Below, in pieces: positions 17,945 to 62,521 of a stretch of 64,000 nt of DNA (position 1 is its first letter; every line of letters starts with the position of its first letter). Below the pieces are notes generated by a model. The model ran no database searches, was not told the origin of the DNA, and was given only the letters and a program-made list of their open reading frames with translations. The position numbers were made by a program, and so were the translations under genes. The stretch is taken from contig JASTWF010000418.1 in the NCBI GenBank assembly GCA_030390025.1, forward strand, positions 1 through 64,000, in the 5' to 3' direction. Source of the DNA: Squalus acanthias (taxonomy: Eukaryota).

Positions 17945-18325
17945 CGGCCTCGACCTTCAGTGTAGATCCACAGCCGCACCAATCTGTCGCATTCTTGTCT
18001 CCCAGGTGGTCAGCCATTTGGCAGAAGTACCTGGTGGAATCTTGCTGCGTGGCATTAGTGATCCGCAGAGACATCTGCTTTCGGCCAAAGTTCTTCTCGG
18101 CCACGTAACGGTGAGCTTTCCCAGCCATGAAGGTTGGGACCTGTGACTTGGGGCTCCAGTACACCAGCTGCTTCATGGCCCCAGTGCCAGGGGGGACGTA
18201 ACCCCAGATCAAGTACCGGTCGTCTGTCTTGCGGGAGAATCGGCACTCCATCGTGACCGACTCGCCCTCCCGGACGCTCATTAATGTGGACGAGAATCGG
18301 AAGTTCCCACCGCAGGAGGTGAGCC
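17945..18325 (-). CDS. Gene 1 exon 2: V-set Ig domain with germline-encoded J-like G strand
   Basis: Acceptor TCTCTATTTTCAG|, donor G|GTAGGG, 381 nt, phase 1-1. Motifs: VREGESVTMEC, YLIW, SLRITNATQQDSTRYFC, WCGCGSTLKVE. 73 residues lie between the canonical Cys. Confidence 0.92.
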
Positions 18326-21631: not shown

Positions 21632-21677
21632 CAGCCAGGAGGAAGATGTGAACAGAGAGTGAAATCACCGACTTCAT
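21632..21677 (-). CDS. Gene 1 exon 1: signal peptide (split Ig-type leader) MKSVISLSVHIFLLA-G
   Basis: ATG at 21677, 15 hydrophobic-rich codons + 1 nt, then donor G|GTAAGG (phase 1). It joins in frame to the V exon, giving MKSVISLSVHIFLLAGLTSCG. Confidence 0.85.
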
Positions 21678-21777
21678 GTTGGGAGGAGAGCTGACACGAC
21701 ACATCCTTCTCAACGACTGGAGTCCGATCTTCTGGTCCTCGCACACACCCCCTTTCAGAGCGAGTCAGCCTCTGTCC

Positions 21778-21935
21778 TTCCTCTCCATTCATTGGTCACC
21801 AGTCCCGGACACAGTTTCCTGTGTGTGATTGACAGGCTGAGGGACTTCCTTCATTAGCCAGAGGTGGTGAGGCTGGAGACTGAGGCTGGGCACAGCGGAG
21901 GGCACTGGGCAACGAGAGCGGACCCTGCCCTCCCC
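21778..21935 (-). promoter_or_regulatory. Putative proximal promoter of gene 1
   Basis: 100-260 bp upstream of the ATG: CCAAT (21791-21795), Ets core CAGGAAA (21815-21821), PBX/PREP-type TGATTGACAG (21826-21835), degenerate kB GGGACTTCCT (21841-21850). Confidence 0.55.
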
Positions 21936-24900
21936 TCAGACCCTCTGATCCTCAGTCTCACTGACTCTCAGACCCTCTGACCCTGAGTCCCACTGACCCT
22001 CAGTCCCTCTGACCCTCAGTCCCACTGACCCTCAGTCCCTCTGACCCTGAGTCCCACTGACCCTCAGTCCCTCTGACCCTCAGTCCCACTGACCCTCAGT
22101 CCCACTGACACTCAGTCCCACTGACCCTCAGACACTCTGACACTCAGTCCCTCCGACCCTCAGTCTCTCTGACCCTCAGACCCTCTGACCCTCAGTCCCT
22201 CTGACCCTCAGTCCCACTGACCCTCAGTCCCTCTGACCCTCAGTCCCTCTGACCCTCAGTCCCTCTGACCCTCAGTCCCTCTGACCCCCAGTCCCACTGA
22301 CCCTCAGTCCCTCTGACCCTCAGTCCCTCTGACCCTCAGAACCTCTGATCCTCAGTCCCACTGACCCTCAGTCCCTCTGACCCTCAGTCTCTCTGACCCT
22401 CAGACCCTCTGATCCTCAGTCCCACTGACCCTCAGTCCCACTGACCCTCAGTCCCTCCGACCCTCAGACCCTCTGACCCTCAGTCCCTCTGATCATCAGT
22501 CCCTCTGACCCTCAGTCCCTCTGACCCTCAGTCCCTCTGATCCTCAGACCCTCTTACCCTCAGTCCCTCTGACCCTCAGTCCCTCTGACCCCCAGTCCCA
22601 CTGACACTCAGTCCCTCTGACCCTCAGTCCCACTGACCCTCAGTCCCTCTGACCCTCAGTCCCTCTGACCCTCAGTCCATCTGATCATCACTCCCTCTGA
22701 CCCTCAGTCCCACTGACCCTCTGACCCTCACTCCCTATGACACTCAGACCCTCTGACCCTCAGTCCCTCTGACCCTCAGTCCCTCTGATCCTCAGACACT
22801 CTGCCTCTCAGTCCCTCAGACACTCTGACCCTCAGTCCCACTGACGCTCAGTGCCACTGACCCTCAGACCCTCTGACCCTCAGTCCCTCTGACCCTCAGT
22901 CCCACTGACCCTCTGACCCTCAGTCCCTATGACACTCAGACCCTCTGACCCTCAGTCCCTCTGACCCTCAGTCCCAGTGACCCTCAATCCCTCTGACCCT
23001 CAGTCCCTCTGACCCTCAGTCCCACTGACCCTCTGACCCTCACTCCCTATGACCCTCAGTCCCACTGACCCTCAGTCCCTCTGATCCTCAGTCCCACTGA
23101 CCCTCAGTCCATCTGACCCTCAGTCCCTCTGACCCTCAGTCCCTCTGATCCTCAGTCCCTCTGGCCCTCAGTCCCACTGACCCTCAGTCCCTCTGACTCT
23201 CAGTCCCACTGACCCTCAGTCCCTCTGACCCTCAATCCCTCAGACCCTCAGTCCCACTGACACTCAGTCCCTCTGATCCTAAGTCCCTCTGAACTTCAGT
23301 CCCTCAGACCCTCAGTCCCTTTGACCCTCAGTCCCACTGACCCTCATTCCCTCTGACCCTCAGTCCCTCTGACCCTCAGTCCCTCCGTCCACCTGACCAT
23401 CACTCCCTCTGACCCTCAGTCCCGCTGACCCTCAGTCCCTCTGACCCTCAGTCCCTCTGGCCCTCAGTCCCGCTGACCCTCATTCACTCTGACCCTCAGA
23501 CCCTCTGACCCTCAGTCCCTCTGACCCTCAGTCCCTCTGGCCCTCAGTCCAGCGGACCCTCAGTCCCTCTGACCCTCAGTCCCTCTGACCATCAGTCCCT
23601 CTGACCCTCAGTCCCACTGACACTCAGTCCCTCTGATCCTAAGTCCCTCTGACCCTCAGTCCCTCTGACGCTCCGTCCCTCTGACCCTCAGTCCCTTGAC
23701 CCTCACTCCCTTGACCCTCAGTCCCACAGACCCTCAGTCCCTCTGACCCTCAGTCCCTCTGACCCTCAGTCCCTCTGACCCTCAGTCCCTCTGACCCTCA
23801 GTCCCTCTGACCCACAGTCTCACTGTTCCTCAGTCCCTCCAACCCTCAGTCCCATTGACCCTCAGTACCATTGACCCTCAGTCCCTCTAACCCTCAGTCC
23901 ATCAGACCCTCAACCCATTGACCCTCAGTCCCTCTGACCCTCACTCCCTCTGACCCCCTGTCCCTCTGACCCTCAGTCCCTCTGACAATCAGTCCATCTG
24001 ATCATCACTCCCTCTGACCCTCAGTCCCACTGACCCTCAGTCCCTCTGACCCTCAGTCCCGCTTAACCTCAGTCCCTCTGACCATCAGTCCATCTGATCA
24101 TCACTCCCTCTGACCCTCAGTCCCACTGACCCTCAGTCCCTCTGACCCTCAGTCCCTCCGACCCTCAGTCCCTCTGACCCTCAGTCCCTCTGACCCTCAG
24201 TCCCTCTGACCCTCAGTCCCACTGACCCTCAGTTCCACTGACACTCAGTCCCACTGACCCTCAGCCCCTCTGACCCTCAGCCCCTCTGACCCTCAGTCCC
24301 TCTGACCCTCTGACCCTCAGTCCCACTGACCCTCAGTCCCTCTGACCCTCAGTCCCTCTGACCCTCAGCCCCTCTGACCCTCAGTCCCTCTGACCCTCAG
24401 CCCCTCTGACCCTCAGCCCCTCTGACCCTCAGTCCCTCTGACCCTCTGACCCTCTGACCCTCAGTCCCTCTGACCCTCAGTCCCACTGACCCTCAGTCCC
24501 TCTGACCCTCAGTCCCACTGACCCTCAGTCCCACTGACCCTCAGTCCCTCTGACCCTCAGCCCCTCTGACCCTCAGTCCCACTGACCCTCAGTCCCACTG
24601 ACCCTCAGTCCCTCTGACCCTCAATCCCGCTGACCCTCAGTCCCTCTGACCCTCAGTCCCTCTGACCCTCAGCCCCTCTGACCCTCAGTCCCACTGACCC
24701 TCATTCCCTCAGTCTCTCTGACCCTCAGTCCCTCTGACCCTCAGTCCCACTGACCCTCAGTCCCACTGACCCTCAGTCCCTCTGACACTCAGTCCCTCTG
24801 ACCCTCAGTCCCACTGACCCTCAGTCCCTCTGACCCTCAGCCCCTCTGACCCTCAGTCCCACTGACCCTCAGTCCCACTGACCCTCAGTCCCTCTGACCC

Positions 24901-25240
24901 TCAGTCCCTCTGACCCTCAGTCTCTCTGACCATCAGTCCCTCTGACCCTCAGTCCCTCTGACCCTCAATCCCGCTGACCCTCAGTCCCTCTGACCCTCAG
25001 TCCCTCTGACCCTCAGTCCCTCTGACCCTCAATCCCGCTGACCCTCAGTCCCTCTGACCATCAGTCCCTCCGACCCTCAGTTCCACCGAACCTCAGACCC
25101 TCTGACCCTCAGTCCCTCTGACCCTCAGTCCCTCTGACCCTCAGACCCTCTGACCCTCAGTCCCTCTGAACCTCAGTCCCTCTGACCCTCAAACCCGCTG
25201 ACCCTCAGTCCCTCTGACCCTCAGTCCCACTGACCATCAG

Positions 25241-25665
25241 TGCCCACAGTCAGTCACTGACCAGCTCCCTGAGAGCGGCCGCAGGGTTAATCGAGACGAT
25301 GGAGGGGCTCCTCCGATCACTGTCAGTCCGTCTCACTCTCGCTCTGTTTACATCAGCTGTCCCGTGAGAGGGAAGATTCCGGCAATCACCAGATGTTTCA
25401 CTGTTGCTCAAAGAGGGAAGTGATTCACAAATAACGGAGACCAAAATAAATCGAAAGGGCATGAGATTTTTTATTGGCTGAGTGAGATAATGCTGTCCAA
25501 ACCGAAGCATTCCTCTCCATTCATTGGTCACCAGTCCCGGACACAGTTTCCTGTGTGTGATTGACAGGCTGAGGGACTTCCCTCATTAGCCAGAGGTGGT
25601 GAGGCTGGAGACTGAGGCTGGGCACAGCGGAGGGCACTGGGCAACGAGAGCGGACCCTGCCCTCC
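25241..25665. promoter_or_regulatory. Promoter-like island 1 in satellite
   Basis: Right part is near-identical to 21778-21935; GGGACTTCCC at 25573-25582, plus GGAAGTGA, GATAA, TGTTTAC and two CCAAT boxes. Confidence 0.55.
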
Positions 25666-28600
25666 GCTCAGTCCCACTGACCCTCAGTCCCTCTGACGCT
25701 CAGACCCTCTGACCCTCAGTCAGACTGACCCTCAGTCCCACTGACCCTCAGTCCCTCTGACCCTCAGTCTCTCTGACCCTCAGTCCCTCTGACCCTCACT
25801 CCCTCTGACCCTCAGTCCCTCTGACCCTCAGTCCCACTGACCCTCAGTCCCTCTGACCCTCAGTCCCTCTGACCCTCAGTCCCTCTAACCCTCACTCCCT
25901 CTGACCCTCAGTCCCTCTGACCCTCAGTCTCTCTGACCCTCAGTCCCTCTGACCCTCACTCCCTCTGACCCTCAGTCCCTCTGACCCTCAGTCCCACTGA
26001 CCCTCAGTCCCTCTGACCCTCAGCCCCTCTGACCCTCAGTCCCACTGACCCTCATTCCCTCAGTCTCTCTGACCCTCAGTCCCTCTGACCCTCAGTCCCA
26101 CTGAACCTCAGTCCCACTGACCCTCAGTCCCACTGACCCTCAGTCCCTCAGTCCCTCTGACCCTCAGTCCCTCTGACCCTCAGTCCCACTGACCCTCAGT
26201 CCCACTGACACTCAATCCCACTGACCCTCAGTCCCTCTGACCCTCAGTCCCTCTGACCCTCAGTCCCACTGACCCTCAGCCCCTCTGACCCTCAGTCCCA
26301 CTGACCCTCAGTCCCTCTGTCCCTCAGCCCCTCTGACCCTCAGTCCCACTGACCCTCATTCCCTCAGTCTCTCTGAACCTCAGTCCCTCTGACCCTCAGT
26401 CCCACTGACCCTCAGTCCCACTGACCCTCAGTCCCACTGACCCTCAGTCCCTCAGTCCCTCTGACCATCAGTCCCACTGACCCTCAGTCCCACTGACCCT
26501 CAGTCCCTCTGACACTCAGTCCCTCTGACCCTCAGTCCCACAGACCCTCAGTCCCTCTGACCCTCAGACCCTCTGACCCTCAGTCTCACTGACCCTCAGT
26601 CCCTCTGACCCTCAGTCCCACTGACCCTCAGTCCTACTGACACTCAGACCCTCCGACCCTCTGACCCTCAGTCCCACTGACCCTCAGTCCCTCAGACCCT
26701 CAGTCCCTCTGACCCTCAGTCCCTCTGACCCTCACTCACACTGATCCTCAGACCCTCTGACCCTCAGTCCCACTGACCCCCAGTCCCTCTGACCCCCAGT
26801 CCCTCTGACCCTCAGTCCCTCTGACACTCAGACCCTCTGACCCTCAGTCCCTCTGACCCTCAGTCCCACTGACCCTCAGTCCCACTGACCCTCAGTCCCT
26901 CTGACCCTCAGTCCCACTGACCCTCAGTCCCTCTGACCCTCAGTCCCTCTGACCCTCAGTCGCTCTGACCCTCAGTCCCTCTGACCCTCAGTCCCTCTGA
27001 CCCTCAGTCCCTCTGACCCTGAGTCCCACTGACCCTCAGTCCCTCTGACCCTCAGTCCCACTGACCCTCAGTCCCACTGACACTCAGTCCCACTGACCCT
27101 CAGACACTCTGACCCTCAGTCCCTCTGACCCTCAGTCTCTCTGACCCTCAGACCCTCTGACCCTCAGTCTCTCTGACCCTCAGTCCCTCTGATCCTCAGT
27201 CCCACTGACCCTCAGTCCAACTGACCCTCAGTCCCTCCGACCCTCAGACCCTCTGACCCTCATTCCCTCTGATCATCAGTCCCTCTGACCCTCAGTCCCT
27301 CTGACCCTCAGTCCCTCTGATCCTCAGACCCTCTTACCCTCAGTCCCTCTGACCCTCAGTCCCTCTGACCCCCAGTCCCACTGACACTCAGTCCCTCTGA
27401 CCCTCAGTCCCACTGACCCTCAGTCCCTCTGACCCTCAGTCCCTCTGACCCTCAGTCCATCTGATCATCACTCCCTCTGACCCTCAGTCCCACTGACCCT
27501 CTGACCCTCACTCCCTATGACACTCAGACCCTCTGACCCTCAGTCCCTCTGACCCTCAGTCCCTCTGATCCTCAGTCCCTCTGACTCTCAGTCCCTCAGA
27601 CACTCTGACCCTCAGTCCCACTGACGCTCAGTGCCACTGACCCTCAGACCCTCTGACCCTCAGTCCCTCTGACCCTCAGTCCCACTGACCCTCTGACCCT
27701 CACTCCCTATGACACTCAGACCCTCTGACCCTCAGTCCCTCTGACCCTCAGTCCCAGTGACCCTCAGTCCCTCTGACCCTCAGTCCCTCTGACCCTCAGT
27801 CCCACTGAGCATCTGACCCTCACTCCCTATGACCCTCAGTCCCACTGACCCTCAGTCCCTCTGATCCTCAGTCCCACTGACCCTCAGTCCATCTGACCCT
27901 CAGTCCCTCTGACCCTCAGTCCCTCTGATCCTCAGTCCCTCTGGCCCTCAGTCCCACTGACCCTCAGTCCCTCTGACTCTCAGTCCCACTGACCCTCAGT
28001 CCCTCTGACCCTCAGACCCTCAGTCCCACTGATACTCAGTCCCTCTGATCCTAAGTCCCTCTGAACTTCAGTCCCTCAGACCCTCAGTCCCTTTGACCCT
28101 CAGTCCCACTGACCCTCATTCCCTCTGACCCTCAGTCCCTCTGATCCTCAGTCCCACTGACCCTCAGTCCATCTGACCCTCAGTCCCTCTGACCCTCAGT
28201 CCCTCTGATCCTCAGTCCCTCTGGCCCTCAGTCCCACTGACCCTCAGTCCCTCTGACTCTCAGTCCCACTGACCCTCAGTCCCTCTGACCCTCAATCCCT
28301 CAGACCCTCAGTCCCACTGACACTCAGTCCCTCTGATCCTAAGTCCCTCTGAACTTCAGTCCCTCAGACCCTCAGTCCCTTTGACCCTCAGTCCCACTGA
28401 CCCTCATTCCCTCTGACCCTCAGTCCCTCTGACCCTCAGTCCCTCCGTCCACCTGACCATCACTCCCTCTGGCCCTCAGTCCCGCTGACCCTCAGTCCCT
28501 CTGACCCTCAGTCCCTCCGACCCTCAGTCCCACTGACCCTCAGTCCCACTGACCCTCAGTCCCTCTGACCCTCAGTCCCTCTGACCCTCAGTCCCTCTGA

Positions 28601-29542
28601 CTCTCAGTCCCTCCGACCCTCAGTCCCACTGACCCTCTGTCCCTCCGACCCACAGTACCTCTGACCCTCAGTCCCTCTGACCCTCAGTCCCTCTGACCCA
28701 CAGTCTCACTGTTCCTCAGTCCCTCCAACCCTCAGTCCCATTGACCCTCAGTACCATTGACCCTCAGTCCCTCTAACCCTCAGTCCATCAGACCCTCAAC
28801 CCATTGACCCTCAGTCCCTCTGACCCTCACTCCCTCTGACCCCCTGTCCCTCTGACCCTCAGTCCCTCTGACAATCAGTCCATCTGATCATCACTCCCTC
28901 TGACCCTCAGTCCCACTGACCCTCAGTCCCTCTGACCCTCAGTCCCGCTTAACCTCAGTCCCTCTGACCCACAGTCCCTCTGACCATCAGTCCATCTGAT
29001 CATCACTCCCTCTGACCCTCAGTCCCACTGACCCTCAGTCCCTCTGACCCTCAGTCCCACTGACCCTCAGTCCCTCTGACCCTCAGTCCCTCTGACCCTC
29101 AGCCCCTCTGACCCTCAGTCCCTCTGACCCTCAGTCCCTCCGACCCTCAGTCCCTCTGACCCTCAGTCCCACTGACCCTCTGACCCTCTGACCCTCAGTC
29201 CCACTGACCCTCAGTCCCTCTGACCCTCAGTCCCTCTGACCCTCAGCCCCTCTGACCCTCAGTCCCTCTGACCCTCAGCCCCTCTGACCCTCAGCCCCTC
29301 TGACCCTCAGTCCCTCTGACCCTCTGACCCTCTGACCCTCAGTCCCTCTGACCCTCAGTCCCACTGACCCTCAGTCCCTCCGACCCTCAATCTCACTGAC
29401 CCTCAGTCCCACTGACCCTCAGTCCCTCTGACCCTCAGCCCCTCTGACCCTCAGTCCCTCAGTCCGTCTGATCATCACTCCCTCTGACCCTCAGTCTCAC
29501 TGACCCTCAGTCCCTCTGACCCTCAGTCCCACTGACCATCAG

Positions 29543-29968
29543 TGCCCACAGTCAGTCACTGACCAGCTCCCTGAGAGCGGCCGCAGGGGTAATCGAGACG
29601 ATGGAGAGGCTCCTCCGATCACTGTCAGTCCGTCTCACTCTCGCTCTGTTTACATCAGCTGTCCCGTGAGAGGCAGATTCCGGCAATCACCAGAAGTTTC
29701 ACTGTTGCTCAAAGAGGGAAGTGATTCACAAATAACGGAGACCAAAATAAATCGAAAGGGCATGAGATTTTTTATTGGCTGAGTGAGATAATGCTGTCCA
29801 AACCGAAGCATTCCTCTCCATTCATTGGTCACCAGTCCCGGACACAGTTTCCTGTGTGTGATTGACAGGCTGAGGGACTTCCCTCATTAGCCAGAGGTGG
29901 TGAGGCTGGAGACTGAGGCTGGGCACAGCGGAGGGCACTGGGCAACGAGAGCGGACCCTGCCCTCCCC
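29543..29968. promoter_or_regulatory. Promoter-like island 2 in satellite
   Basis: Near-identical to island 1; kB motif at 29874. Confidence 0.55.
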
Positions 29969-32900
29969 TCAGACCCTCTGACCCTCAGTCCCACTGACAC
30001 TCAGTCCCTCTGACCCTCAGTCCCTCTGACCCTCAGTCCCACTGACCCTCATTCCCTCTGACCCTCAGTCTCACTGACCATCAGTCCCACTGACCCTCAG
30101 TCCCTCAGTCCCTCTGACCCTCAGTCCCACTGACCCTCAGTACCACTGACCCTCAGTCCCTCAGTCCCTCTGACACTCAGTCCCTCTGACCCTCAGTCCC
30201 ACAGACCCTCAGTCTCACTGACCCTCAGTCCCTCTGACCCTCAGTCCCACTGACCCTCAGTCTCACTGACCCTCAGTCCCTCTGACCCTCAGTCCCACTG
30301 ACCCTCAGTCCTACTGACACTCAGACCCTCCGACCCTCTGACCCTCAGTCCCACTGACCCTCAGTCCCTCAGACCCTCAGTCCCTCTGACCCTCAGTCCC
30401 TCTGACCCTCACTCACACTGATCCTCAGACCCTCTGACCCTCAGTCCCACTGACCCCCAGTCCTTCTGACCCCCAGTCCCTCTGACCCTCAGTCCCTCTG
30501 ACACTCAGACCCTCTGACCCACAGTCCCTCTGACCCTCAGTCCCACTGACCCTCAGTCCCTCTGATCCTCAGACCCTCTGAACCACAGTCCCTCTGACCC
30601 TCAGTCCCTCTGACCCTCAGTCCCTCTGATCCTCAGTCCCACTGACACTCAGTCCCTGTGACCCTCAGTCCCTCTGACCCTCAGTCCCAATGATCCTCAG
30701 TCCCTCTGACCCTCAGTCCCTCTGATCCTCAGTCCCACTGACACTCAGTCCCTGTGATCCTCAGTCCCTCTGACCCTCAGTCCCACTGACCCTCTGACCC
30801 TCACTCCCTATGACACTCAGACCCTCTGACCCTCAGTCCCTCTGACCCTCAGTCCCTCTGATCCTCAGTCCCTCTGACCCTCAGTCCCTCTGACACTCAG
30901 TCCCTCTGACCCTCAGTCCCTCTGACCCTCAGTCCCTCTGACCCTCAGTCCCTCCGTCCACCTGACCATCACTCCCTCTGGCCCTCAATCCCGCTGACCC
31001 TCAGTCCCTCTGACCCACAGTCCCACTGACCATCAGTCCCTCTGACCCTCAGTCCCTCTGACCCTCAGTCCCACTGACCCTCAGTCCCTCTGACCCTCAG
31101 TCCCACTGACCATCAGTCCCACTGACCCTCAGTCCCTCTGACCCTCATTCTCACTGACCCACAGTACTTCTGACCCTCAGTCCCTCTGACCCTCAGTCCC
31201 TCTGACCCTCAGTCCCACTGACCCTCAGTCCCTCTGACCCTCAATCCCTCTGACCCTCAATCCCTCTGACCCTCAGTCCCACTGACACTCAGTCCCTCTG
31301 ATCCTAAGTCCCTCTGACCCTCAGTCCCTCTGACGCTCAGTCCCTCTGACCCTCAGTCCATTGACCCTCACTCCCTTGACCCTCAGTCCCACTGACCCTC
31401 AGTCCCTCTGACCCTCAGTCCCTCTGACGCTCCGTCCCTCTGACCCTCAGTCCCTTGACCCTCACTCCCTTGACCCTCAGTCCCTCTGACCCTCAGTCCC
31501 TCTGACCCTCAGTCCCTCTGACGCTCAGTCCCTCTGACCCTCACTCCCTCTGACCCCCAGTCCCTCTGACCATCAGTCCATCTGATCATCACTCCCTCTG
31601 ACCCTCAGTCCCGCTTAACCTCAGTCTCTCTGACCATCAGTCCATCTGATCATCACTCCCTCTGACCCTCAGTCCCTCTGACCCTCAGTCCCTCTAACGC
31701 TCCGTCCCTCTGACCCTCAGTCCCTTGACCCTCACTCCCTTGACCCTCAGTCCCTCAGTCCCTCAGTCCCTCTGACCCTCAGTCCCACTGACCCTCAGTC
31801 CCTCTGAACCTAAGTCCCTCTGACCCTCAGTCCCTCCGACCCTCAGTCCCTCTGACCCTCAGTCCCACTGACCCTCAGTCCCTCTGACCCTCAGTCCCTC
31901 TGACCCTCAGTCCCTCTGACCCTCAGTCCATCTGATCATCACTCCCTCTGACCCTCAGTCCCACTGACCCTCAGTCCCTCTGACCCTCAGTCCCTCTGAC
32001 CCTCAGTCCCACTGACCCACAGTCCCTCTGACCCTCCGTCCCTCTGACCCTCAGTCCCACTGACCCTCAGTCCCTCTGACCCTCAATCCCTCTGACCCTC
32101 AGTCCCACTGACACTCAGTCCCTCTGATCCTAAGTCCCTCTGACCCTCAGTCCCACTGACCCTCAGTCCCTCTGACCCTCAATCCCTCTGACCCTCAGTC
32201 CCACTGACACTCAGTCCCTCTGATCCTAAATCCCTCTGACCCTCAGTCCCTCTGACGCTCAGTCCCTCTGACCCTCAGTCCCTTGACCCTCAGTCCCTCT
32301 GACCCTCAGTCCCTCTGACCCTCAGTCCCTCTGACCCTCAGTCCCGCTGATCCTCAGTCCCACTGACACTCAGTCCCTGTGATCCTCAGTCCCACTGACC
32401 CTCAGTCCCTCTGACACTCAGTCCCTCTGACCCTCAGTCCCTCTGACCCTCAGTCCCTCTGACCCTCAGTCCCTCTGACACTCAGTCCCTCTGACCCTCA
32501 GTCCCTCTGACCCTCAGTCCCTCTGACCCTCAGTCCCTCCGTCCACCTGACCATCACTCCCTCTGGCCCTCAATCCCGCTGACCCTCAGTCCCTCTGACC
32601 CTCAGTCCCACTGACCATCAGTCCCTCTGACCCTCAGTCCCTCTGACCCTCAGTCCCACTGACCCTCAGTCCCTCTGACCCTCAGTCCCTTGACCCTCAC
32701 TCCCTTGACCCTCAGTCCCACTGACCCTCAGTCCCTCTGACCCTCAGTCCCTCTGACGCTCCGTCCCTCTGACCCTCAGTCCCTTGACCCTCACTCCCTT
32801 GACCCTCAGTCCCTCTGACCCTCAGTCCCTCTGACCCTCAGTCCCTCTGACGCTCAGTCCCTCTGACCCTCACTCCCTCTGACCCCCAGTCCCTCTGACC

Positions 32901-35900
32901 CTCAGTCCCTCTGACCCTTAGTCCCTCTGACCATCAGTCCATCTGATCATCACTCCCTCTGACCCTCAGTCCCGCTTAACCTCAGTCCCTCTGACCATCA
33001 GTCCATCTGATCATCACTCACTCTGACCCTCAGTCCCTCTGACCCTCAGTCCCTCTGACGCTCCGTCCCTCTGACCCTCAGTCCCTTGACCCTCACTCCC
33101 TTGACCCTCAGTCCCTCTGACCCTCAGTCCCTCTGACCCTCAGTCCCTCTGATCCTCAGTCCCTCTGACCCTCAGTGCCTCCGACCCTCAGTCCCTCTGA
33201 CCCGCAGTCCCTCTGACCCTCAGTCCATCTGATCATCACTCCCTCTGACCCTCAGTCCCACTGACCCTCAGTCCCTCTGAACCTCAGTCCCTCTGACCCT
33301 CAGTCCCTCCGACCCTCAGTCCCTCTGACCCTCAGTCCCACTGACCCTCAGTCCCTCTGACCCTCAGTCCCTCTGACCCTCAGTCCCTCTGACCCTCAGT
33401 CCATCTGATCATCACTCCCTCTGACCCTCAGTCCCACTGACCCTCAGTCCCTCTGACCCTCAGTCCCTCTGACCCTCAGTCCCACTGACCCTCAGTCCCT
33501 CTGACCCTCAATCCCTCTGACCCTCAGTCCCACTGACACTCAGTCCCTCTGATCCTAAGTCCCTCTGACCCTCAGTCCCTCTGACGCTCAGTCCCTCTGA
33601 CCCTCAGTCCCTTGACCCTCACTCCCTTGACCCTCAGTCCCTCTGACCCTCAGTCCCTCTGACCCTCAGTCCCTCTGACGCTCAGTCCCTCTGACCCTCA
33701 CTCCCTCTGACCCCCAGTCCCTCTGACCCTCAGTCCCTCTGACCCTCAGTCCCTCTGACCATCAGTCCATCTGATCATCACTCCCTCTGACCCTCAGTCC
33801 CGCTTAACCTCAGTCCCTCTGACGATCAGTCCATCTGATCATCACTCCCTCTGACCCTCAGTCCCTCTGACCCTCAGTCCCTCTGACGCTCCGTCCCTCT
33901 GACCCTCAGTCCCTTGACCCTCAGTCCCTTGACCCTCAGTCCCTCTGACCCTCAGTCCCTCTGACCCTCAGTCCCTCTGATCCTCAGTCCCTCTGACCCT
34001 CAGTGCCTCCGACCCTCAGTCCCTCTGACCCGCAGTCCCTCTGACCCTCAGTCCATCTGATCATCACTCCCTCTGACCCTCAGTCCCACTGACCCTCAGT
34101 CCCTCTGAACCTCAGTCCCTCTGACCCTCAGTCCCTCCGACCCTCAGTCCCTCTGACCCTCAGTCCCACTGACCCTCAGTCCCTCTGACCCTCAGTCCCT
34201 CTGACCCTCAGTCCCTCTGACCCTCAGTCCCTCTGATCCTCAGTCCCACTGACACTCAGTCCCTGTGATCCTCAGTCCCTCTGACCCTCAGTCCCACTGA
34301 CCCTCTGACCCTCACTCCCTATGACACTCAGACCCTCTGACCCTCAGTCCCTCTGACCCTCAGTCCCTCTGATCCTCAGTCCCTCTGACCCTCAGTCCCT
34401 CTGACACTCAGTCCCTCTGACCCTCAGTCCCTCTGACCCTCAGCCCCTCTGACCCTCAGTCCCTCCGTCCACCTGACCATCACTCCCTCTGGCCCTCAAT
34501 CCCGCTGACCCTCAGTCCCTCTGACCCTCAGTCCCACTGACCATCAGTCCCTCTGACCCTCAGTCCCTCTGGCCCTCAGTCCCACTGACCCTCAGTCCCT
34601 CTGACCCTCAGTCCCACTGACCCTCAGTCCCACTGACCCTCAATCTCTCTGACCCTCAGTCCCACTGACACTCAGTCCCACTGATCCTAAGTCCCTCTGA
34701 CCCTCAGTCCCTCTGACGCTCAGTCCCTCTGACTCTCAGTCCCTTGACCCTCACTCCCTTGACCCTCAGTCCCACTGACCCTCACTCCCTTGACCCTCAG
34801 TCCCTCTGACCCTCTGACCCTCAGTCCCTCTGACCCTCAGTCCCTCTGACCCTCAGTCCCTCTAACTCTCAGTCCCTCCGACCCTCAGTCCCACTGACCC
34901 TCAGTCCCTCTGATCCTCAGTCCCACTGACCCTCTGTCCCTCCGACCCACAGTACCTCTGACCCTCAATCCCTCTGACCCTCAGTCCCTCTGACACACAG
35001 TCCCTCTGACCCTCACTCCCTCTGACCCCCAGTCCCTCTGACCCTCAGTCCCTCTGACCCTCAGTCCCTCTGACCCTCAGTCCCTCTGAAAATCAGTCCA
35101 GCTGATCATCACTCCCTCTGACCCTCAGTCCCGCTTAACCTCAGTCCCTCTGACCATCAGTCCATCTGATCATCACTCCCTCTGACCCTCAGTCCCACTG
35201 ACCCTCAGTCCCTCTGACCCTCAGTCCCTCTGACCCTCAGTCCCTCAGATCCTCAGACCCTCTGACCCTCAGTGCCTCCGACCCTCAGTCCCTCTGACCC
35301 GCAATCCCTCTGACCCTCAGTCCATCTGATCATCACTCCCTCTGACCCTCAGTCCCACTGACCCTCAGTCCCTCTGAACCTCAGTCCCTCTGACCCTCAG
35401 TTCCTCCGACCCTCAGTCCCTCTGACCCTCAGTCCCACTGACCCTCAGTCCTACTGACACTCAGACACTCCGACCCTCTGACCCTCAGTCCCACTGACCA
35501 TCAGTCCCTCAGACCCTCAGTCCCTCTGACCCTCAGTCCCTCTGACCCTCAGAGACTCTGACCCTCAGTCCCTCTGACCCTCAGTCCCTCTGACCCTCAC
35601 TCACACTGATCCTCAGACCCTCTAACCCTCAGTCCCACTGACCCCCAGTCCCTCTGACCCTCAGTCCCTCTGACCCACAGTCCCTCTGACCCTCAGAGAC
35701 TCTGACCCTCAGTCCCTCTGACCCTCAGTCCCTCTGACCCTCAGTCCCACTGACAGTCAGTCCCTCTGATTCTTAGACCCTCTGACCCACAGTCCCTCTG
35801 ACCCTCAGTCAGACTGACCCTCAGTCCCTCAGACCCTCTGACCCTCAGTCCCACTGACGCTCAGTGCCACTGACCCTCAGACCCTCTGACCCTCAGTCCC

Positions 35901-38708
35901 TCTGACCCTCAGTCCCTCTGACCCTCAGTCCGACTGACCCTCTGACCCTCACTCCCTATGACACTCAGACCCTCTGACCCTCAGTCCCTCTGACCCTCAG
36001 TCCCTCTGACCCTCAGTCCGACTGACCCTCTGACCCTCACTCCCTATGACACTCAGACCCTCTGACCCTCAGACCCTCTGACCCTCAGTCCCTCTGACCC
36101 TCAGTCCCTCTGACCCTCAGTCCGACTGACCCTCTGACCCTCACTCCCTATGACACTCAGTCCCTCTGACCCTCAGTCCCTCTGACACTCAGTCCCTCTG
36201 ACCCTCAGTCCCACCGACCCTCAGTCACTCTGACCCTCAGTCCCACTGACCCTCAGTCCCTCTGACCCTCAGTCCCTCTGACCCCCAGTCTCACTGACCC
36301 TCAGTCCCTCTGACCCTCAATCCCGCTGACCCTCAGCCCCTCTGACCCTCAGTCCCTCTGACCCTCAGTTCCTCCGAACCTCAGTCCCTCTGACCCTCAG
36401 TCCCTCTGACCCACAGTCCCTCTGACCCACAGTCCCTCTGACCCTCAGCCCCTCTGACCCTCAGTCCCTCAGTCCGTCTGATCATCACTCCCTCTGACCC
36501 TCAGTTCCTCCGAACCTCAGTCCCTCTGACCCTCAGTCCCTCTGACCCTCAGTCCCTCTGACCCACAGTCCCTCTGACCCTCCCTCCCACTGACCCACAG
36601 TCCCGCTGACCCTCAGTCCCACTGACTCTCAGTCCCTCTGACCCTCAGTCCCACTGACTCTCAGTCCCTCTGACCCTCAGTCCCACTGACCCTCAGTCCC
36701 ACTGACCCTCAGTCCCACTGACCCTCAGTCCCTCTGACCCTCAGTCCCTCTGACCCTCAGTCCCTCTGACCCTCAGTCCCTCTGACCCTCATTCCCACTG
36801 ACCCTCAGTCCCTCCGACCCTCAGACCCTCTGACCCTCAGTCCCTCTGACCCTCAGTCCCTCTGACCCTCAGTCCCTCTGACCCTCATTCCCACTGACCC
36901 TCAGACCCTCTGACCCTCAGTCCCTCTGACCCTCAGTCCCTCTGATCCTCAGACCCTCTGACCCTCAGTCCCTCTGACCCTCAGTCCCTCTGATCCTCAG
37001 TCCCTCTGACACTCAAACCCGCTGACCCTCACTCCCTCTGACCCTCAGTCCCTCAGATCATCACTCCCACTGACCCTCAGTCCCTCTGACCCTCAGTCCC
37101 ACTGACCCTCAGTCCCACTGACACTCAGTCCCACTGACGCTCCGTCCCTCTGACCCTCAGTCCCTCTGACCCTCAGTCCCACAGACCCTCAGTCACTCTG
37201 ACCCTCAGTCCCTCTGACCCTCAGTCCCTCTGACCCTCAGTCCCACTGACCCTCAGTCCCTCCGACCCTCAGTCCCTCTAACTCTCAGTCCCTCTGACGC
37301 TCAGTCCCTCTGACCCTCAGTCCATCAGACCCTCAACCCATTGACCCTCAGTCCCTCTGACCCTCACTCCCTCTGACCCCCTGTCCCTCTGACCCTCAGT
37401 CCCTCTGACCCTCAGCCCCTCTGACAATCAGTCCATCTGATCATCACTCCCTCTGACCCTCAGTCCCACTGACACTCAGTCCCTCTGACCCTCAGTCCCT
37501 CCGACCCTCAGTTCCACTGACACTCAGTCCCTCTGACCCTCAGTCCCTCTGACACTCAGTCCCTCTGACACTCAGTCCCTCTGACCCTCAGTCCCACCGA
37601 CCCTCAGTCCCTCTGATCCTCAGTCCCACTGACCCTCAGTCCCTCTGACCCTCAGTCCCACTGACCCTCAGTCCCTCCGACCCTCAGTCCCTCTGACCCT
37701 CAGTCCCTCTGACCCTCAGTCTCACTGACCCTCAGTCCCTCTGACCATCAGTCCCTCCGACCCTCAGTTCCTCTGACCCTCAGTCCCTCTTAAACTGAGT
37801 CCCACTGACCCTCAGTCCCTCTGACCCTCAGTCCCTCTGACCCTCACTCCCTTGACCCTCAGTCCCTCTGACCCTCAGTCCCTCTGACCCTCAGTCCCAC
37901 TGACCCTCAGTCCCTCTGACCCTCAGTCCCACTGACCCTCAGTCCCTCTGACCCTCAGTCCCACTGACCCTCAGTCCCTCTGACCCTCAGTCCCACTGAC
38001 CCTCAGTCCCACTGACCCTCAGTCCCACTGACCCTCAGTCCCTCTGACCCTCAGTCCCTCTGACCCTCAGTCCCTCTGACCCTCAGTCCCTCCGACCCTC
38101 AGTCCCTCTGACCCTCAGTCCCACTGACCCTCAGTCCCTCCGACCCTCAGTCCCTCTGACCCTCAGTCCCTCTGACCCTCATTCTCTCTGACCCTCAGTC
38201 CCTCTGACCCTCAGTCCCTCTGACCCTCAGTCCCTCTGACCCTCAGTCCCTTGACCCTCACTCCATTGACCCTCAGACCCTCTGACCCTCAGTCCCTCTG
38301 ACCCTCAGTCCCTCTGACCCTCAGACCCTCTGACCCTCAGTCCCTCTGACCCTCAGTCCCTCCGACCCTCAGTCCCTCTGACCCTCAGTCCCTCCGACCC
38401 TCAGTCCCTCTGACCCTCAGTCCCTCTGACCCTCAGTCCCTCTGACCCTCAGTCCCTCTGACCCTCAGACCCTCTGACCCTCAGTCCCTCTGACCCTCAG
38501 TCCCTCTGACCCTCAGTCCCTCTGACCCTCAGTCCCCCTGACCCTCAGTCCCTCTGACCCTCAGTCCCTCTGACCCTCAGTCCCTCTGACCCTCAGTCCC
38601 TCTGACCCTCAGTCCCTCTGACCCTCAGTCCCCCTGACCCTCAGTCCCTCTGACCCTCAGTCCCTCTGACCCTCTGTCCCTCTGACCCTCAGTCCCACTG
38701 ACCATCAG

Positions 38709-39135
38709 TGCCCACAGTCAGTCACTGACCAGCTCCCTGAGAGCGGCCGCAGGGGTAATCAAGACGATGGAGGGGCTCCTCCGATCACTGTCAGTCCGTC
38801 TCACTCTCGCTCTGTTTACATCAGCTATCCCGTGAGAGGGAAGATTCCGGAAATCACCAGAAGTTTCACTGTTGCTCAAAGAGGGAAGTGATTCACAAAT
38901 AACGGAGAGCAAAATAAATAGAAAGGGCACGAGATTTTTTATTGGCTGAGTGAGATAATGCTGTCCAAACCGAAGCATTCCTGTCCATTCATTGGTCACC
39001 AGTCCCGGACTCCGTTTCCTGTGTGTGATTGACAGGCTGAGGGACTTCCCTCATTAGCCAGAGGTGGTGAGGCTGGAGACTGAGGCTGGGCACAGCGGAG
39101 GGCACTGGGCAACGAGAGCGGACCCTGCCCTCCCC
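38709..39135. promoter_or_regulatory. Promoter-like island 3 in satellite
   Basis: Slightly more diverged copy; kB motif at 39041. Confidence 0.55.
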
Positions 39136-40698
39136 TCAGACCCTCTGACCCTCAGTCCCACTGACACTCAGTCCCTCTGACCCTCACTCCCTCTGACCCT
39201 CAGTCCCGCTGACTCTCAGTCCCTCTGACCCTCCCTCCCACTGACCCTCCCTCCCTCTGACTCTCAGTCCCACTGACCCACAGTCACTCTGACCCTCAGT
39301 CCCTCTGACCCTCAGTCCCACTGACCCTCAGTCCCTCTGACCCTCAGTCCCTCTGACCCTCAGTCCCACTGACCCTCAGTCCCACTGACCCTCAGTCCCT
39401 CTGACCCTCAGTCCCTCTGACACTCAGTCCCTCTGACCCTGAGTCCCACTGACCCTCAGACCCTCTGACCCTCAGTCCCTCTGACCCTCAGTCCCACTGA
39501 CCCTCAGTCCCACTGACCCTCAGACCCTCTGACCTTCAGTCCCTCTGACCCTCTCTCCATCTGACCCTCAGTCCCACTGACCCTCAGACCCTCTGACCCT
39601 CGGTCCCTCTGACCCTCAGTCCCTCTGACCCTCAGTCCCTCTGACCCTCAGACCCTCTGACCATCAGTCCCTCTGACCCTCAGTCCCTCTGACCCTCAGT
39701 CCCTTGACCCTCAACCATTGACCCTCAGTCCCTCTGACCCTCAGTCCCACTGACCCTCAGTCCCTCTGACCCTCAGTCCCTCTGACCATCAGTCACTCTG
39801 ACCCTCAGACCCTCTGACCCTCAGTCCCTCTGACCCTCTCTCCATCTGACCGTCAGTCCCACTGACCCTCAGTCCCACTGACACTCAGTCCCTCTGACCC
39901 TCAGTCCCTCTGACCCTCAGTCCCACTGACACTCAGTCCCTCTGACCCTCAGTCCCTCTGACCCTCAGTCCCTCTGACCCTCAGTCCCACTGACACTCAT
40001 TCCCTCTGACCCTCAGTCCCTCTGACCCTCAGTCCCACTGACCCTCAGACCCACTGACCCTCAGTCCCACTGACACTCAGTCCCACCGACCCTCAGTCCC
40101 ACTGACCATCAGTCCCTCAGACCCTCAGTCCCTCTGACCCTCAGTCCCTCTGACCCTAACTCACACTGAACCTCAGACCCTCTGACCCTCAGTCCCACTG
40201 ACACTCAGACCCTCTGACCCTCAGAGACTCTGACCCTCAGACCCTCTGACCCTCAGTCCCTCTGACCCTCAGTACCACTGACCCTCAGTCCCTCTGACCC
40301 TCAGTCCCACTGACACTCAGTCCCTCTGACCCTCAGTCCCTCTGACCCTCAGTCCCTCTGACCCTCAGTCAGACTGACCCTCAGTCCCTCTGACTCTCAG
40401 TCCCTCAGACCCTCAGTCCCTCTGACCCTCAGTCCCTCTGACCCTCAGTCCCACTGACCCTCTGACCCTCACTCCCTATGACACTCAGACCCTCTGACCC
40501 TCAGTCCCTCTGATCCTCAGTCCCTCTGACCCTCAGTCCCAGTGACCCTCAGTCCCTCTGACCCTCAGACCCTCTGACCCTCAGTCCCACTGACGCTCAA
40601 TGCCACTGACCCTCAGTCCCTCTGACCCTCAGTCTCACTGACCCTCAGTCCCTCTGACCCTCAGTTCCACTGACCCTCAGTCCCACTGACTCTCAGTC

Positions 40699-41371
40699 AT
40701 AGAACATAGATACATAGAACAGTTCAGCACAGTACAGGCCCTTCGGCCCTCGATGTTGTGCCGAGCATTGTCCGAGACCAAGATCAAGCTATCACACTCC
40801 CTATCACTCTGGTGTGCTCCATGTGCTTATCCAATAACCGCTTGAAAGTTCCTAAAGTGTCCGACTCCACTATCACAGCAGGCAGTCCATTCCACACCCC
40901 AACCACTCTCTGAGTAAAGAATCTACCTCGGACATCCCTTCTATATCTCCCCCCATGCACCTTATAGTTATGCCCCCTTGTAACAGCTGCCTCTACCCGA
41001 GGAAATAGTCTCTGAACATCCACTCTATCTATCCCCCTCATCATCTTATAAACCTCTATTAAGTCGCCTCTCATCCTCCTCCGCTCTAAAGAGAAAAGCC
41101 CCAACTCCCTCAATCTTTCCTCATAAGACCTCCCCGCCAAACCAGGCAGCATCCTGGTAAATCTCCTTTACACTCTTTCCACTGCTTCCACGTCCTTCCT
41201 ATAGTGAGGTGACCAGAACTGCACACAATATTCCAAATGTGGTCTCACCAAGGTCCTGTACAGTTGCAGCATAAACTCACGGTTCTTAAACTCAAACCCT
41301 CTGTTAATAAACGCCAACACACCATAGGCCTTCTTAACTGCTCTATCCACTTGAGTGGCAACCTTCAGAGA
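40699..41371 (-). mobile_element. Young 5'-truncated CR1 inserted in the satellite
   Basis: Near-identical to the 3' part of 47479-49050; 18-bp TSD TCCCACTGACTCTCAGTC (40681-40698 / 41372-41389). Confidence 0.92.
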
Positions 41372-43495
41372 TCCCACTGACTCTCAGTCCCACTGACCCA
41401 CAGACCCTCTGACCCCCAGTCCCTCTGACCCTCAGTCCCACTGACCCACAGACCCTCGGACCCTCAGACCCTCGGACCCTCAGTCCCACTAACACTCAGT
41501 CCCGCTGACCCTCAGTCCCTCTGACCCTCAGTCCCTCTGACCCTTAGTCCCTCTGACTCTCAGTCCCTCCGACCCTCAGTCCCACTGACCCTCAGACCCA
41601 CTGACCCTCAGTCCCTCTGACCCTCAGTCCCACTGACCCACAGACCCTCGGACCCTCAGACCCTCGGACCCTCAGTCCCACTGACACTCAGACCCACTGA
41701 CCCTCAGTCCCTCTGACCCTCAGTCCCACTGACACTCAGTCCCTCTGACCCTCAGTCCCTCTGACCCTCTGACCCTCTGACCCTCAGTCCCTCCGACCAT
41801 CAGTCCCTCTGACCCTCAGTCCCTCTGACCCTCAGTCCCTCTGACCCTCAGTCCCACTGACACTCAGTCCCTCTGACCCTTAGTCCCTCTCACCCTCAGT
41901 CCCTCTGACCCTCTGACCCTCTGACCCTCAGTCCCTCTGACCCTCAGTCCCTCTGACCCTCAGTCCCACTGACCCTCAGACCCACTGACCCACAGACCCA
42001 CTGACCCTCAGTCCCTCTGACCCTCAGACCCACTGACCCGCAGTCCCTCTGACCCTCAGTCCCACTGACCCTCATTCCCTCTGACCCTCAGTCCCACTGA
42101 CACTCAGTCCCTCTGACCCTCAGTCCCTCTGACCCTCAGTCCCTCAGTCCCTCTGACCCTCAGTCCCTCTGACCCTCAGTCCCTCAGTCTCTCTGACCCT
42201 CAGTCCCACTGATCCTCAGTCCCTCTGACCCTCAGTCCCTCTGACCCTCAGTCCCTCTGACCCTCAGTCCCACTGACCCTCAGTCCCTTGACCCTCACTC
42301 CCACTGACCCTCAGTCCCTCTGACCCTCAGTCTCTCTGACCCTCAGTCCCTCTGACCCTCAGTCCCACTGATCCTCAGTCCCACTGACCCTCAGTCCCTC
42401 TGACCCTCAGTCCCTCTGACCCTCAGTCCCACTGATCCACAGTCCCACTGACCCTCAGTCCCTCTGACCCTCAGTCCCTCTGACCCTCAGTCCCACTGAC
42501 CCTCAGTCCCTCTGACCCTCAGTCCCTCTGACCCTCAGTCCCACTGACCCTCATTCCCTCTGACCCTCAGTCTCTCTGACCCTCAGTCCCAGTGACCCTC
42601 AGTCCCACTGACCTCCCTCCCTCTGACCCTCAGTCCCTCTGACCCTCAGTCCCGCTGACCCTCAGTCCCTCTGACCCTCCCTCCTACTGACCCTCAGTCC
42701 CTCTGACCCTCAGTCCCTCTGACCATCAGTACCTCTGTCCCTCAGTCCCTCTGACCCTCAGTCCCTCTGACCCTCAGTCCCTCTGACCCTCAGTCCCTCT
42801 GATCCTCAGTCCCTCTGACCCTCAGTCCCTCTGAACCTCATTCCCTCTGACCGTCAGACCCTCGGACCCTCAGTCCCTCTGACCCTCAGTCCCTCTGACC
42901 TTCAGTCCCTCTGATCCTCAGTCCCTCTGACCCTCAGTCCCTCTGACCCTCAGTCCCTCTGACCCTCAGTCCCACTGACCCTCAGTCCCTCTGACCCTCC
43001 GTCCCACTGAACCTCAGTCCCTCGGACCCTCAGTCCCACTGACCCTCAGTCCCTCTGACCCTCAGTCCCTCTGACCCTCAGTCCCACTGACCCTCAGTCC
43101 CTCTGACCCTCCGTCCCACTGAACCTCAGTCCCTCTGACCCTCAGTCCCACTGACCCTCATTCCCACAGACCCTCCCTCCCTCTGACCCTTAGTCCCTCT
43201 GACCCTCATTCTCACTGACCCTCAGTCCCTCTGACCCTCAGTCCCTCTGACCCTCAGTCCCTCTGACCCTCAGTCCCTCAGTCCCTCTGACCCTCAGTCC
43301 CTCAGTCCCACTGTGCCTCAGTCCCTCTGACCCTCAGTCCCACTGAACCTCACTCCCTCTGAGCTCAGTCCCTCTGACCCTCACTCCCTCTGACGCTCAG
43401 TCTCTCTGACCCTCAGTCTCACTGACCCTCACTCCCTATGACCCTCACTTCCTCTGACCCTCAGTCCCTCTGACCCTCAGTCCCTCTGACCCTCA

Positions 43496-58848: not shown

Positions 58849-58954
58849 CTGGACATTGAAATCCGAACCAACCTCTTCTGATCCAGCGATGGGATGGTCT
58901 CCATTTGAAGTTCACCCTGTGGCCAGAGACTGTTTCTCTGCATTCGGTAACTGC
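58749..58954 (-). CDS. Gene 2 putative terminal cytoplasmic exon (G)SYRMQRNSLWPQGELQMETIPSLDQKRLVRISMSSS...AESH*
   Basis: Strong polypyrimidine acceptor TTCCTCTTCTCTTCCCTCACCTGCAG|, in phase with the TM exon, open to the stop at 58749-58751. Confidence 0.65.
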
Positions 58955-59029
58955 CTGCAGGTGAGGGAAGAGAAGAGGAAAAATATCGGCTTCAGTTTAT
59001 CAGGAAAATCACACTGAGATCAGTCCCAA

Positions 59030-59335
59030 TGGCCTTGATCTACCTGTCTGTGTACCTGGTGTCAGATCCACCTGTCTGTGTACCTGGGGACTGATCCACC
59101 TGTCTGTGTACCTGGGGACTGATCCACCTGTCTGTGTACCTGGGGTCAGATCTACCTGTCTGTGTACCTGGGGTCAGATCTACCTGTCTGTGTACCTGGG
59201 GTCAGATCTACCTGTCTGTGTACCTGGGGTCAGATCCACCTGTCCGTGTACCTGGGCCTTGATCCACCTGTCTGTGTACCTGGGCTCTGATCCACCTGTC
59301 TGTGTACCCGGTGTCTGATCTACCTGTCTGTCTGT
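59030..59335. repeat. 28-bp minisatellite
   Basis: Unit GATCCACCTGTCTGTGTACCTGGGGTCA. Confidence 0.93.
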
Positions 59336-59454
59336 GTGTTCTTTGTGAGATAAGACCGCTCACTGTAATTACCGGACTGTAGTCGGACTGCTAATTGCAC
59401 AGTGATTTCCTCTAGTTCGTTCCCGTTACACCCCCTCACACACTCCGAACCTAC

Positions 59455-59592
59455 CCTTTCTCTTCTGCCTGCAAGTCCTGATGCTGTGGGAAACGCTCAG
59501 GATGATGACTGTGTAGACGATCAGCCCGCAGACTGCGAGGAGAATCCAGAGCCAGGCCCAGTCCCGGAGCTCTCCTCTCAATATCGAGGGCC
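59455..59592 (-). CDS. Gene 2 transmembrane exon GPSILRGELRDWAWLWILLAVCGLIVYTVIILSVSHSIRTCRQKRK
   Basis: CTTCCCCACAG| ... G|GTAGG, 138 nt, phase 1-1; ~24 hydrophobic residues followed by a basic stop-transfer RQKRK. Not in the ORF track; read manually. Confidence 0.85.
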
Positions 59593-59914
59593 CTGTGGGG
59601 AAGCAGAGGTTGAGAGGTGAGCGTGCTCCTCATCTTGAAACCCCCTTAACATTCAGCAATCTGCTCAGGGTTATCTGGAGCGCAGAGTGGGGAGTTATTC
59701 AGCCGTGGGAGGGCGGAGATGGTTGGACACCCCCCCACCGCCCCCTCTTTTCAGAGGAGTGGGTGGGAGGAACATTCACCTCGTCAGCCCATGGCCAACA
59801 CACGGGCGAGATGTGGCTCGGGGGCCTGGGTCGGTGCTGAAAGACACTGAAAATAGCCCACCAGAAATCTTCAGGAGCCAGTAACAAGCTTGACTGTCCC
59901 AGGGATTGTGTCCT

Positions 59915-61950: not shown

Positions 61951-62404
61951 TGTCAGTGCCTCCATGAAAGGCCACATCCAGACTGACCTTCGAAGACTTA
62001 AAAAGCAATTAAAGTGGAGACAAGGGTGTCTAGAATTTCAACCGCCCGTAAGAACTTTATTATCTGGGTCACATTCCAAGGTATCTTTTAATCAGCGTTC
62101 AGCAGTTTGAGTGAACGATTGAGGAGGCGGCTTACACATGTTTACCTTAGGATAGATAACCAATCAGTGAAGGTGCATGCGGGCCAAGATCCAATCAGGT
62201 TGCAGAAATAAATTTTGAATGGGCTGGACATGTGTATTGTAATGTATAAAAATGTAGTGTTTGCTGTAACAATTTGGTGAAGTCTGTCTAAAGACAGAGC
62301 AGACTGTCTCCCCACCGGTGTAATAAAGACAACCTGACTATCGATCTGAAAACCTTGTGTCGAGTGTTGGTTTAAAATACTCCACAACAGGACCTTCACC
62401 ACAA

Positions 62405-62521
62405 GGGCTGCAGCGGTTCAAGAAGGCGGCCCACCACCACCTTCTCAAGGGCAATTAGGGATGGGCAATAAATGCCGGCCTTGCCAGCGATGCCCACATT
62501 CCAGGAACGAAATAAAAAAAA
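62405..62521 (+). mobile_element. LINE/SINE 3' tail fragment
   Basis: Reverse-complement match to the tail at ~19430-19536; ends in an A-run. Confidence 0.7.

Follow-up and report, generated by a model that had tools for sequence, protein, structure and literature searches.

UrIg2 of elasmobranchs has been described as a non-rearranging receptor gene with plastic duplications of its constant (C) exons (Flajnik et al. 2025, PMC12227049). According to the same source its expression is highest in gill, next in liver and far lower in spleen; table S1 of that paper gives tandem copies for stingray and one locus each for three sharks, and the words promoter, enhancer, satellite and upstream do not occur in the main text. 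Copies of promoter sequence standing upstream of a gene among short tandem repeats are described for the ribosomal DNA (rDNA) spacer promoters of Xenopus, Drosophila and rodents (PMC5765358), and duplicated regulatory DNA for the 4.6-kb enhancer copy number variant of horse STX17 (PMC11362437) and for promoter variable number tandem repeats (VNTRs) such as the 33-bp repeat of human TRIB3 (PMC7425993). The present analysis concerns 64,000 nucleotides of Squalus acanthias DNA (GenBank assembly GCA_030390025.1, contig JASTWF010000418.1, positions 1 to 64,000; hereafter the window), in which a gene identified from its predicted exons as UrIg2 (gene 1) is preceded by three islands of promoter-like sequence set in a satellite. 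No earlier description of this island locus was found in the literature searched, a coverage that left out most subscription papers.

The islands are near-identical (97-99% identity; 428, 427 and 428 bp) and are embedded in a 16-bp satellite upstream of gene 1. Each consists of a 272-bp part B followed by a 156-bp part A, and part A, unlike part B, has a further copy on the gene side, starting 74 bp upstream of the first ATG (Table 1). In part A the gene copy is identical to islands 1 and 2 at 155 of 156 positions, the sole difference falling on the final base of its kB site. It agrees with island 3 at 152 of 156. Islands 1 and 2 differ by four substitutions and one gap, and island 3 differs from each of them by 11 substitutions (2.6%); variability did not differ between the two parts (p=0.27). 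An earlier note on this DNA had described some 160 bp upstream of gene 1 recurring in three satellite-borne islands of about 425 bp, with identity stopping abruptly near 21778, and both observations held (156 bp and 427-428 bp). No remote similarity was found beyond that sharp edge: local alignment of part B against 21500-21777 gave p=0.46, three further alignment set-ups p=0.31-0.62 and anchored extension p=0.30. Elsewhere in the window part B had no match (blastn, word 7; best Smith-Waterman score 54 against a null of 48-62). That part B might itself have diverged from exon 1 or from the 5' untranslated region was dismissed, the similarity not rising above that of shuffles.

This arrangement resembles that of rDNA spacer promoters. 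Those are transcribed by RNA polymerase I and have demonstrated enhancer function (PMC5765358), whereas gene 1 is a spliced, protein-coding polymerase II gene and the copied promoter, known from sequence alone, is partial, probably permuted and perhaps devoid of a start site. An rDNA-type context was not found, as nothing in the window matched Rfam and the adjacent gene is spliced and protein-coding; the shared part ends 74 bp upstream of the ATG. STX17 likewise shows a kilobase-scale tandem duplication in two to three copies carrying transcription-factor sites, but the STX17 unit consists of unique, conserved DNA, for which there is evidence from reporters, methylation and phenotype (PMC11362437), whereas about 90% of each unit here is satellite, characterised by its sequence only. 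As at TRIB3, tandem copies of promoter sequence adjoin the gene; there, however, the repeat unit is itself the element and is polymorphic (PMC7425993), whereas here 430-bp islands lie 4-9 kb apart in one haplotype.

The origin of the islands may be read from an 8-bp direct repeat, GAGAGCGG, found where unique DNA meets satellite (Table 1). The probability of such edge placement by chance is about 0.002-0.015 for tolerances of 5-15 bp, for a pattern that was noticed post hoc. As the 8-mer stands at both satellite edges and is absent inside the array, it would most simply belong to unique host DNA and not to the satellite; on this view A originally adjoined B, and the satellite came between them. 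A split-and-permute origin of the islands, with amplification as passengers, is judged to lie just on the probable side of even. A and B would at first have formed one UrIg2 upstream region of about 450 bp, in the order exon 1, A, B; a 16-bp satellite block would then have arisen between them, as the direct repeat suggests; and tandem duplication of the A-satellite-B unit would have placed B's end directly against the beginning of A, producing the B+A island as well as the abrupt edge at 21778. The alignments described below show that unequal exchanges, their breakpoints lying in the satellite, later copied an island (1/2) and, more often, satellite alone. In functional terms the gene-proximal part A would serve as the proximal promoter, of a TATA-less CCAAT/PBX-PREP kind. 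The part B sites for FOX, C/EBP, GATA and Ets may come from island 1, working 3.8 kb upstream as an ordinary enhancer in gill and liver, and the further copies would be by-products with little or no selected role.

Several results weigh against this history. It predicts a terminal part B to the right of the array and none was found in 43.5-64 kb; under the split model B would then have been lost, or have left with the upstream paralogue of gene 1. In part A the gene copy is nearer to islands 1 and 2 (one difference) than island 3 is (three), and its placement nested among the islands fits about six-fold better than as outgroup (likelihood ratio 5.7, four variable sites). Such nesting favours capture or gene conversion, so that a split-and-permute origin would need conversion or chance. 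Part A has undergone no change on the branches of islands 1 and 2, where part B would predict 2.9 (P=0.057), which hints weakly at conversion or constraint. Neither a mechanism by which a satellite block would arise with an 8-bp duplication nor terminal inverted repeats were found.

The explanation ranked second is promoter capture, whereby B+A, as an intact regulatory unit of other origin, already lay in the satellite and a deletion or a duplication of UrIg2 joined one part A to gene 1, replacing the native promoter. Capture is considered unlikely. It would account for the gene copy as sister of islands 1 and 2 and requires no loss of a terminal B, and the same-sense pair of CCAAT boxes, 50 bp apart, that straddles the B/A junction is in its favour; but the likelihood ratio is based on four sites, an unknown donor is required and the position of the CCAAT box relative to the ATG would be luck. 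The 8-bp repeat would also be left unexplained unless the island was inserted in satellite at a non-satellite 8-mer. Because at least two UrIg2 paralogues lie in tandem, a gene-duplication junction must be situated somewhere in 21.8-58.8 kb; this speaks for capture, and a junction between the two genes offers a way out for either the split or the capture model.

The satellite, whose unit is made up of two 8-bp halves, extends over about 21.5 kb, from about 21933 to 43495. For comparison of its blocks it was split into 2480 tokens, nearly all of them 8-bp half-units, and rare variants were aligned. The two satellite duplicates flanking islands 1 and 2 (Table 1, blocks S1 and S2), the longer of which scored 438 against a null of at most 24, are both 0.9% diverged, the same as island 1 against island 2. 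From these matched flanks, island 2 is the sister of island 1 through a tandem duplication of about 5 kb with breakpoints in the satellite. At least five other duplicated blocks within S2 and S3 are all island-free, and the three that were measured are 1.1-1.3% diverged. Islands 1 and 2 can be explained as passengers on one satellite duplication among several island-free ones of similar age. Tandem arrays make up 58% of the window, and simple tandem repeats are abundant on small shark chromosomes (PMC10620051). With exon pairs duplicated at similar ages and so much of the window given to tandem array, duplication of the islands needs no special cause. Only a few flanking satellite monomers are common even to the sister islands, and the history could not be polarised from the satellite ends, segment S4b exceeding the null with no other block and S4a only weakly (35 and 32 against null maxima of 18 and 22). 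That islands 1 and 2 are two haplotypes falsely assembled in tandem is scarcely credible: a divergence of 0.9% over the duplicated block could be allelic and satellites are difficult to assemble, but the differences are substitutions, the flanks differ by hundreds of satellite bases and other duplications show similar ages. Island 3 and the gene copy would be unaffected by such an error.

The promoter-like character of the island and part A sequence is supported by motif content. A panel of 30 vertebrate consensus types was used, with the three islands counted as one independent sequence; as the panel was picked after the finding had been seen, the motif p-values are optimistic. Of the 30 types, 10 were present in island 1, where 3000 dinucleotide shuffles gave 4.0 (p=0.001); with the PBX-PREP decamer left out the figure was 9 of 29 (p=0.004). 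Its motif score of 10.5 compares with scores of at most 6.2 for all 38 other 428-bp non-tandem windows, two of the control regions being too short to yield one. Most motifs listed by the earlier note sit in part B, which on its own holds seven types (p=0.007); the gene's part A holds two (p=0.58 by types, and p=0.02 by score owing to the decamer), and a kB match by itself is not rare (p~0.1). With the exception of the decamer and CCAAT, the motifs are assigned to factors that we presume to bind them.

The kB motif GGGACTTCC has four copies in the window, exactly where they had been reported (21841, 25573, 29874 and 39041), with the final C in the three island copies and T at the gene. The decamer TGATTGACAG also has four (21826, 25558, 29859 and 39026). 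Each island carries TGTTTAC, GGAAGTGA, WGATAA and two reverse CCAAT at the expected offsets, and each of the three NotI sites in the window lies inside an island. The motif list previously drawn up is thus accurate for the islands, but the NotI site, FOX, GGAAGTGA, GATA and second CCAAT are features of part B and so are missing at the gene. Similarly, the view of the islands as an amplified gene 1 promoter fits their motif density and CCAAT placement, but only 156 of the 428 bp recur at the gene. The gene-proximal T (21841-21850) gives a weaker kB match but, on the minus strand, an AGGAAGT that is a closer Ets core than the GGGAAGT of the islands.

The CCAAT box at 21791 is in gene-sense orientation; it precedes the first ATG by about 90 bp and is 30 bp away from TGATTGACAG. 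TATAWAW does not occur in 21600-44000. Were A and B read contiguously, all motifs would lie between about -88 and -450 of the ATG, by arithmetic only. Pairing of TALE (PBX-PREP) and NF-Y sites has been described with the same exact TGATTGACAG close to CCAAT, at an average spacing of about 20 bp in zebrafish against the 30 bp seen here, and with binding in zebrafish blastula and mouse embryonic stem cells (PMC6023610), whereas the present site is predicted from sequence.

Could the islands be active modules whose number sets the level or NF-kB inducibility of UrIg2, in the manner of rDNA spacer promoters or STX17? Such a selected dosage enhancer is quite unlikely. The motif density that exceeds shuffles and control windows is in its favour, as are the identity of part A in islands 1 and 2 and the retention of the kB consensus, decamer, FOX and both CCAAT boxes in all three islands; there is also precedent for two to three tandem copies making a weak enhancer strong (PMC11362437). 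The copies are, however, so young (1-2.6%) that retention of motifs is meaningless, and motifs have mutated at the chance rate (4 of 15 variable sites inside them against 3.2 expected, at low power), with an Ets core and an E-box lost. Island-free duplications are more numerous than island-bearing ones. Decay of CpG in the islands, used to gauge germline hypomethylation, with 2 transitions at 36 CpG columns against 9 changes at 391 others (ratio 2.4), matched that of pooled non-coding control duplicates (8/186 against 23/1580, ratio 2.95) in an underpowered test that pooled three of seven control alignments, excluding those containing exons and one nearly free of CpG. No sequence sign of selection on island copy number or motifs was seen.

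In a homotypic cluster a short stretch holds multiple sites for the same factor. The earlier proposal of a homotypic enhancer array does not fit this pattern, as each island is a mixed motif cluster with one kB site, and these sites are 4302 and 9166 bp apart. Two further candidates were rejected. Immunoglobulin switch regions with an I promoter have dense WGCW/AGCT hotspots for activation-induced cytidine deaminase; the satellite has the G-rich strand, but WGCW occurs at 0.96/kb against 14/kb in 44260-51340. A class I promoter of the major histocompatibility complex (MHC), with its order of kB, interferon-stimulated response element (ISRE), X and Y, was dropped: the window showed no gene of the MHC, and the ISRE pattern found no match in the islands. 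The FOX, C/EBP and GATA sites of part B would fit expression in gill and liver. Spleen and epigonal organ, which had been put forward along with liver as tissues for study, are the wrong ones to begin with, given the reported order of UrIg2 expression (PMC12227049).

It is highly improbable that the islands derive from a dispersed repeat, such as a solo long terminal repeat (LTR), a miniature inverted-repeat transposable element or a fragment of a short interspersed element (SINE), inserted in the satellite with an 8-bp target duplication. Hallmarks of such elements include terminal inverted repeats, TG...CA ends and a head derived from tRNA or 5S RNA. The 8-bp repeat does flank the island core as well as the satellite block, AATAAA is present on both strands of the island, and LTR-like controls can be motif-rich (nine types in the window at 61908). 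Terminal inverted repeats (7/30 identity) and TG...CA ends were nevertheless lacking, a search for structured RNA or a tRNA-derived SINE returned no Rfam or tRNA match, no further copy lies within the window and the 8-mer serving as target does not belong to the satellite. For the longest of three listed frames, an ATG frame of 86 codons in part B, a search of proteins of 47-151 aa gave three candidates, of which none reached E<=1; it has no protein relative there, and a coding origin of B was rejected on this one frame. Plasmid or phage matches were likewise not found.

The identification of gene 1 as UrIg2, a non-rearranging shark antigen-receptor gene, comes from its predicted exons. In the PDB the variable-joining (VJ) exon matched one entry only at E<=1e-12, that of UrIg2 from nurse shark (9DMX, E=2.4e-54), and it had three protein matches among 21 candidates (proteins of 222-2000 aa searched), the best at 80% to Heptranchias perlo P0001. 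Two non-canonical V G-strand cysteines (112 and 114) are present, WCGCG aligning with FCSCG of 9DMX, and the leader is split, its exon being identical at 13 of 24 residues to the N-terminus of P0001. Both in-frame ATGs, at 21704 and 21677 and nine codons apart, occur in P0001 as well. At least four pairs of C exons are tandemly duplicated, 0.3-2.2% diverged. The split leader, single-exon VJ, extra cysteines, duplicated C-exon pairs, transmembrane (TM) form and tandem paralogues, the last as in stingray, all agree with described UrIg2 (PMC12227049; PDB 9DMX), the TM exon being seen for the upstream paralogue only, as the 3' end of gene 1 falls left of the window. UrIg2 is further characterised by cytoplasmic exons and by linkage to IgH, TCR alpha/delta and PSMB5. 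The repeated pair differs, consisting here of C1 and a second domain with its best match at residues 259-364 of P0001, whereas C2/C3 is repeated in nurse shark (PMC12227049). Judged by these matches, the gene 1 array is an exon-pair amplification independent of that repeat.

What we take to be an LTR-like element lies inside the duplicated exon unit (5470-6267, 9425-11124 and 13797-15490), with a CpG-rich insert of about 895 bp in two of the three copies; sequence resembling the element or its insert was noted by eye near 60505-61380. A 14-base near-palindromic word at the satellite edge of part B (25249-25262) recurs, also by eye, in 41-bp intronic repeats upstream of C1 exons (e.g. 3817-4109).

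Further features were noted in the satellite. G-quadruplex (G4)-type matches number 350 on its minus strand (gene sense), about 19-22/kb, and none on the plus strand; R-loops and instability may be favoured by this G4-rich strand if it is transcribed. The minus strand also has a GGGTCA half-site every 16 bp, and 23 places fit the DR2 (direct repeat, spacing of two) nuclear-receptor pattern, probably a by-product of the repeat unit. The non-satellite insertion in S4 (40699-41371), presumably LINE-like (long interspersed element), has an 18-bp direct repeat on each side. A 33-bp satellite at 43495-44270 shares an 8-bp half-unit and is nested at the right edge of the array, the 16-bp array resuming briefly near 44242-44268.

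Table 1. Coordinates of features at the UrIg2 island locus (positions in the window).
Feature	Position	Strand	Remarks
8-bp direct repeat GAGAGCGG, gene A/satellite edge	21914..21921	+	All 7 plus-strand copies in the window at A/satellite or satellite/B edges
GAGAGCGG, satellite/B edge	25271, 29573, 38739	+	
GAGAGCGG, island A edge	25646, 29947, 39114	+	
Part A, gene-proximal copy (putative proximal promoter)	21778..21933	-	CCAAT 21791, Ets core 21815, TGATTGACAG 21826, kB-like GGGACTTCCT 21841
Island 1	25238..25665		B 25238-25509 (NotI, FOX, E-box, Ets, C/EBP-like, IRF-like, CCAAT, GATA); A 25510-25665
Island 2	29540..29966		Sister of island 1; one Ets core lost
Island 3	38706..39133		Older copy; one E-box lost
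Satellite block S1	21934..25237		22027-24575 duplicated at 26999-29453
Satellite block S2	25666..29539		26431-26878 recurs at 30084-30555
Satellite block S3	29967..38705		Lengthened by island-free internal duplications (1.1-1.3% diverged)
Satellite block S4	39134..43494		Interrupted at 40699-41371; part B not at far end
Gene 1 leader exon, coding part	21632..21704	-	First ATG 21704, second in-frame ATG 21677, phase-1 GT donor 21631
Gene 1 single-exon, germline-joined VJ domain	17945..18325	-	G-strand CxC of UrIg2
Gene 1 C1-like exon, four copies	16129-16446, 11761-12078, 6640-6957, 3491-3808	-	Alternates with second C exon
Gene 1 second C exon, four copies	13089-13409, 8718-9038, 4642-4962, 1-124 (cut)	-	Paired with C1-like exon
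Second UrIg2 paralogue, 3' end	58850..63224	-	Same orientation, tandem; exon edges approximate
Paralogue exons: last C; TM; cytoplasmic	~62900-63224; ~59455-59592; ~58850-58954	-	61% (last C domain) and 51% (TM) to P0001

Taken together, these data are most likely to represent an ordinary satellite-driven duplication of promoter DNA at a notable gene, a modest new case of duplicated cis-regulatory DNA. It is distinctly improbable that the locus is a polymerase II counterpart of rDNA spacer promoters, in which a UrIg2 promoter split by satellite was rejoined, in permuted order, as compact modules whose number tunes expression. On that reading the island modules combine a consensus kB motif, which the gene copy does not have, with sites for FOX, C/EBP, GATA and Ets; recombination within a G4-forming satellite would vary their number among individuals, and expression in gill and liver, or its inducibility, would be tuned for what is a candidate ancestor of the antigen receptors. 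Should the islands be passengers, the case is no more than an example of cis-regulatory DNA being shuffled by satellite turnover at shark loci rich in repeats. The islands mark a candidate UrIg2 control region of about 450 bp, and may provide a natural copy-number test of it.

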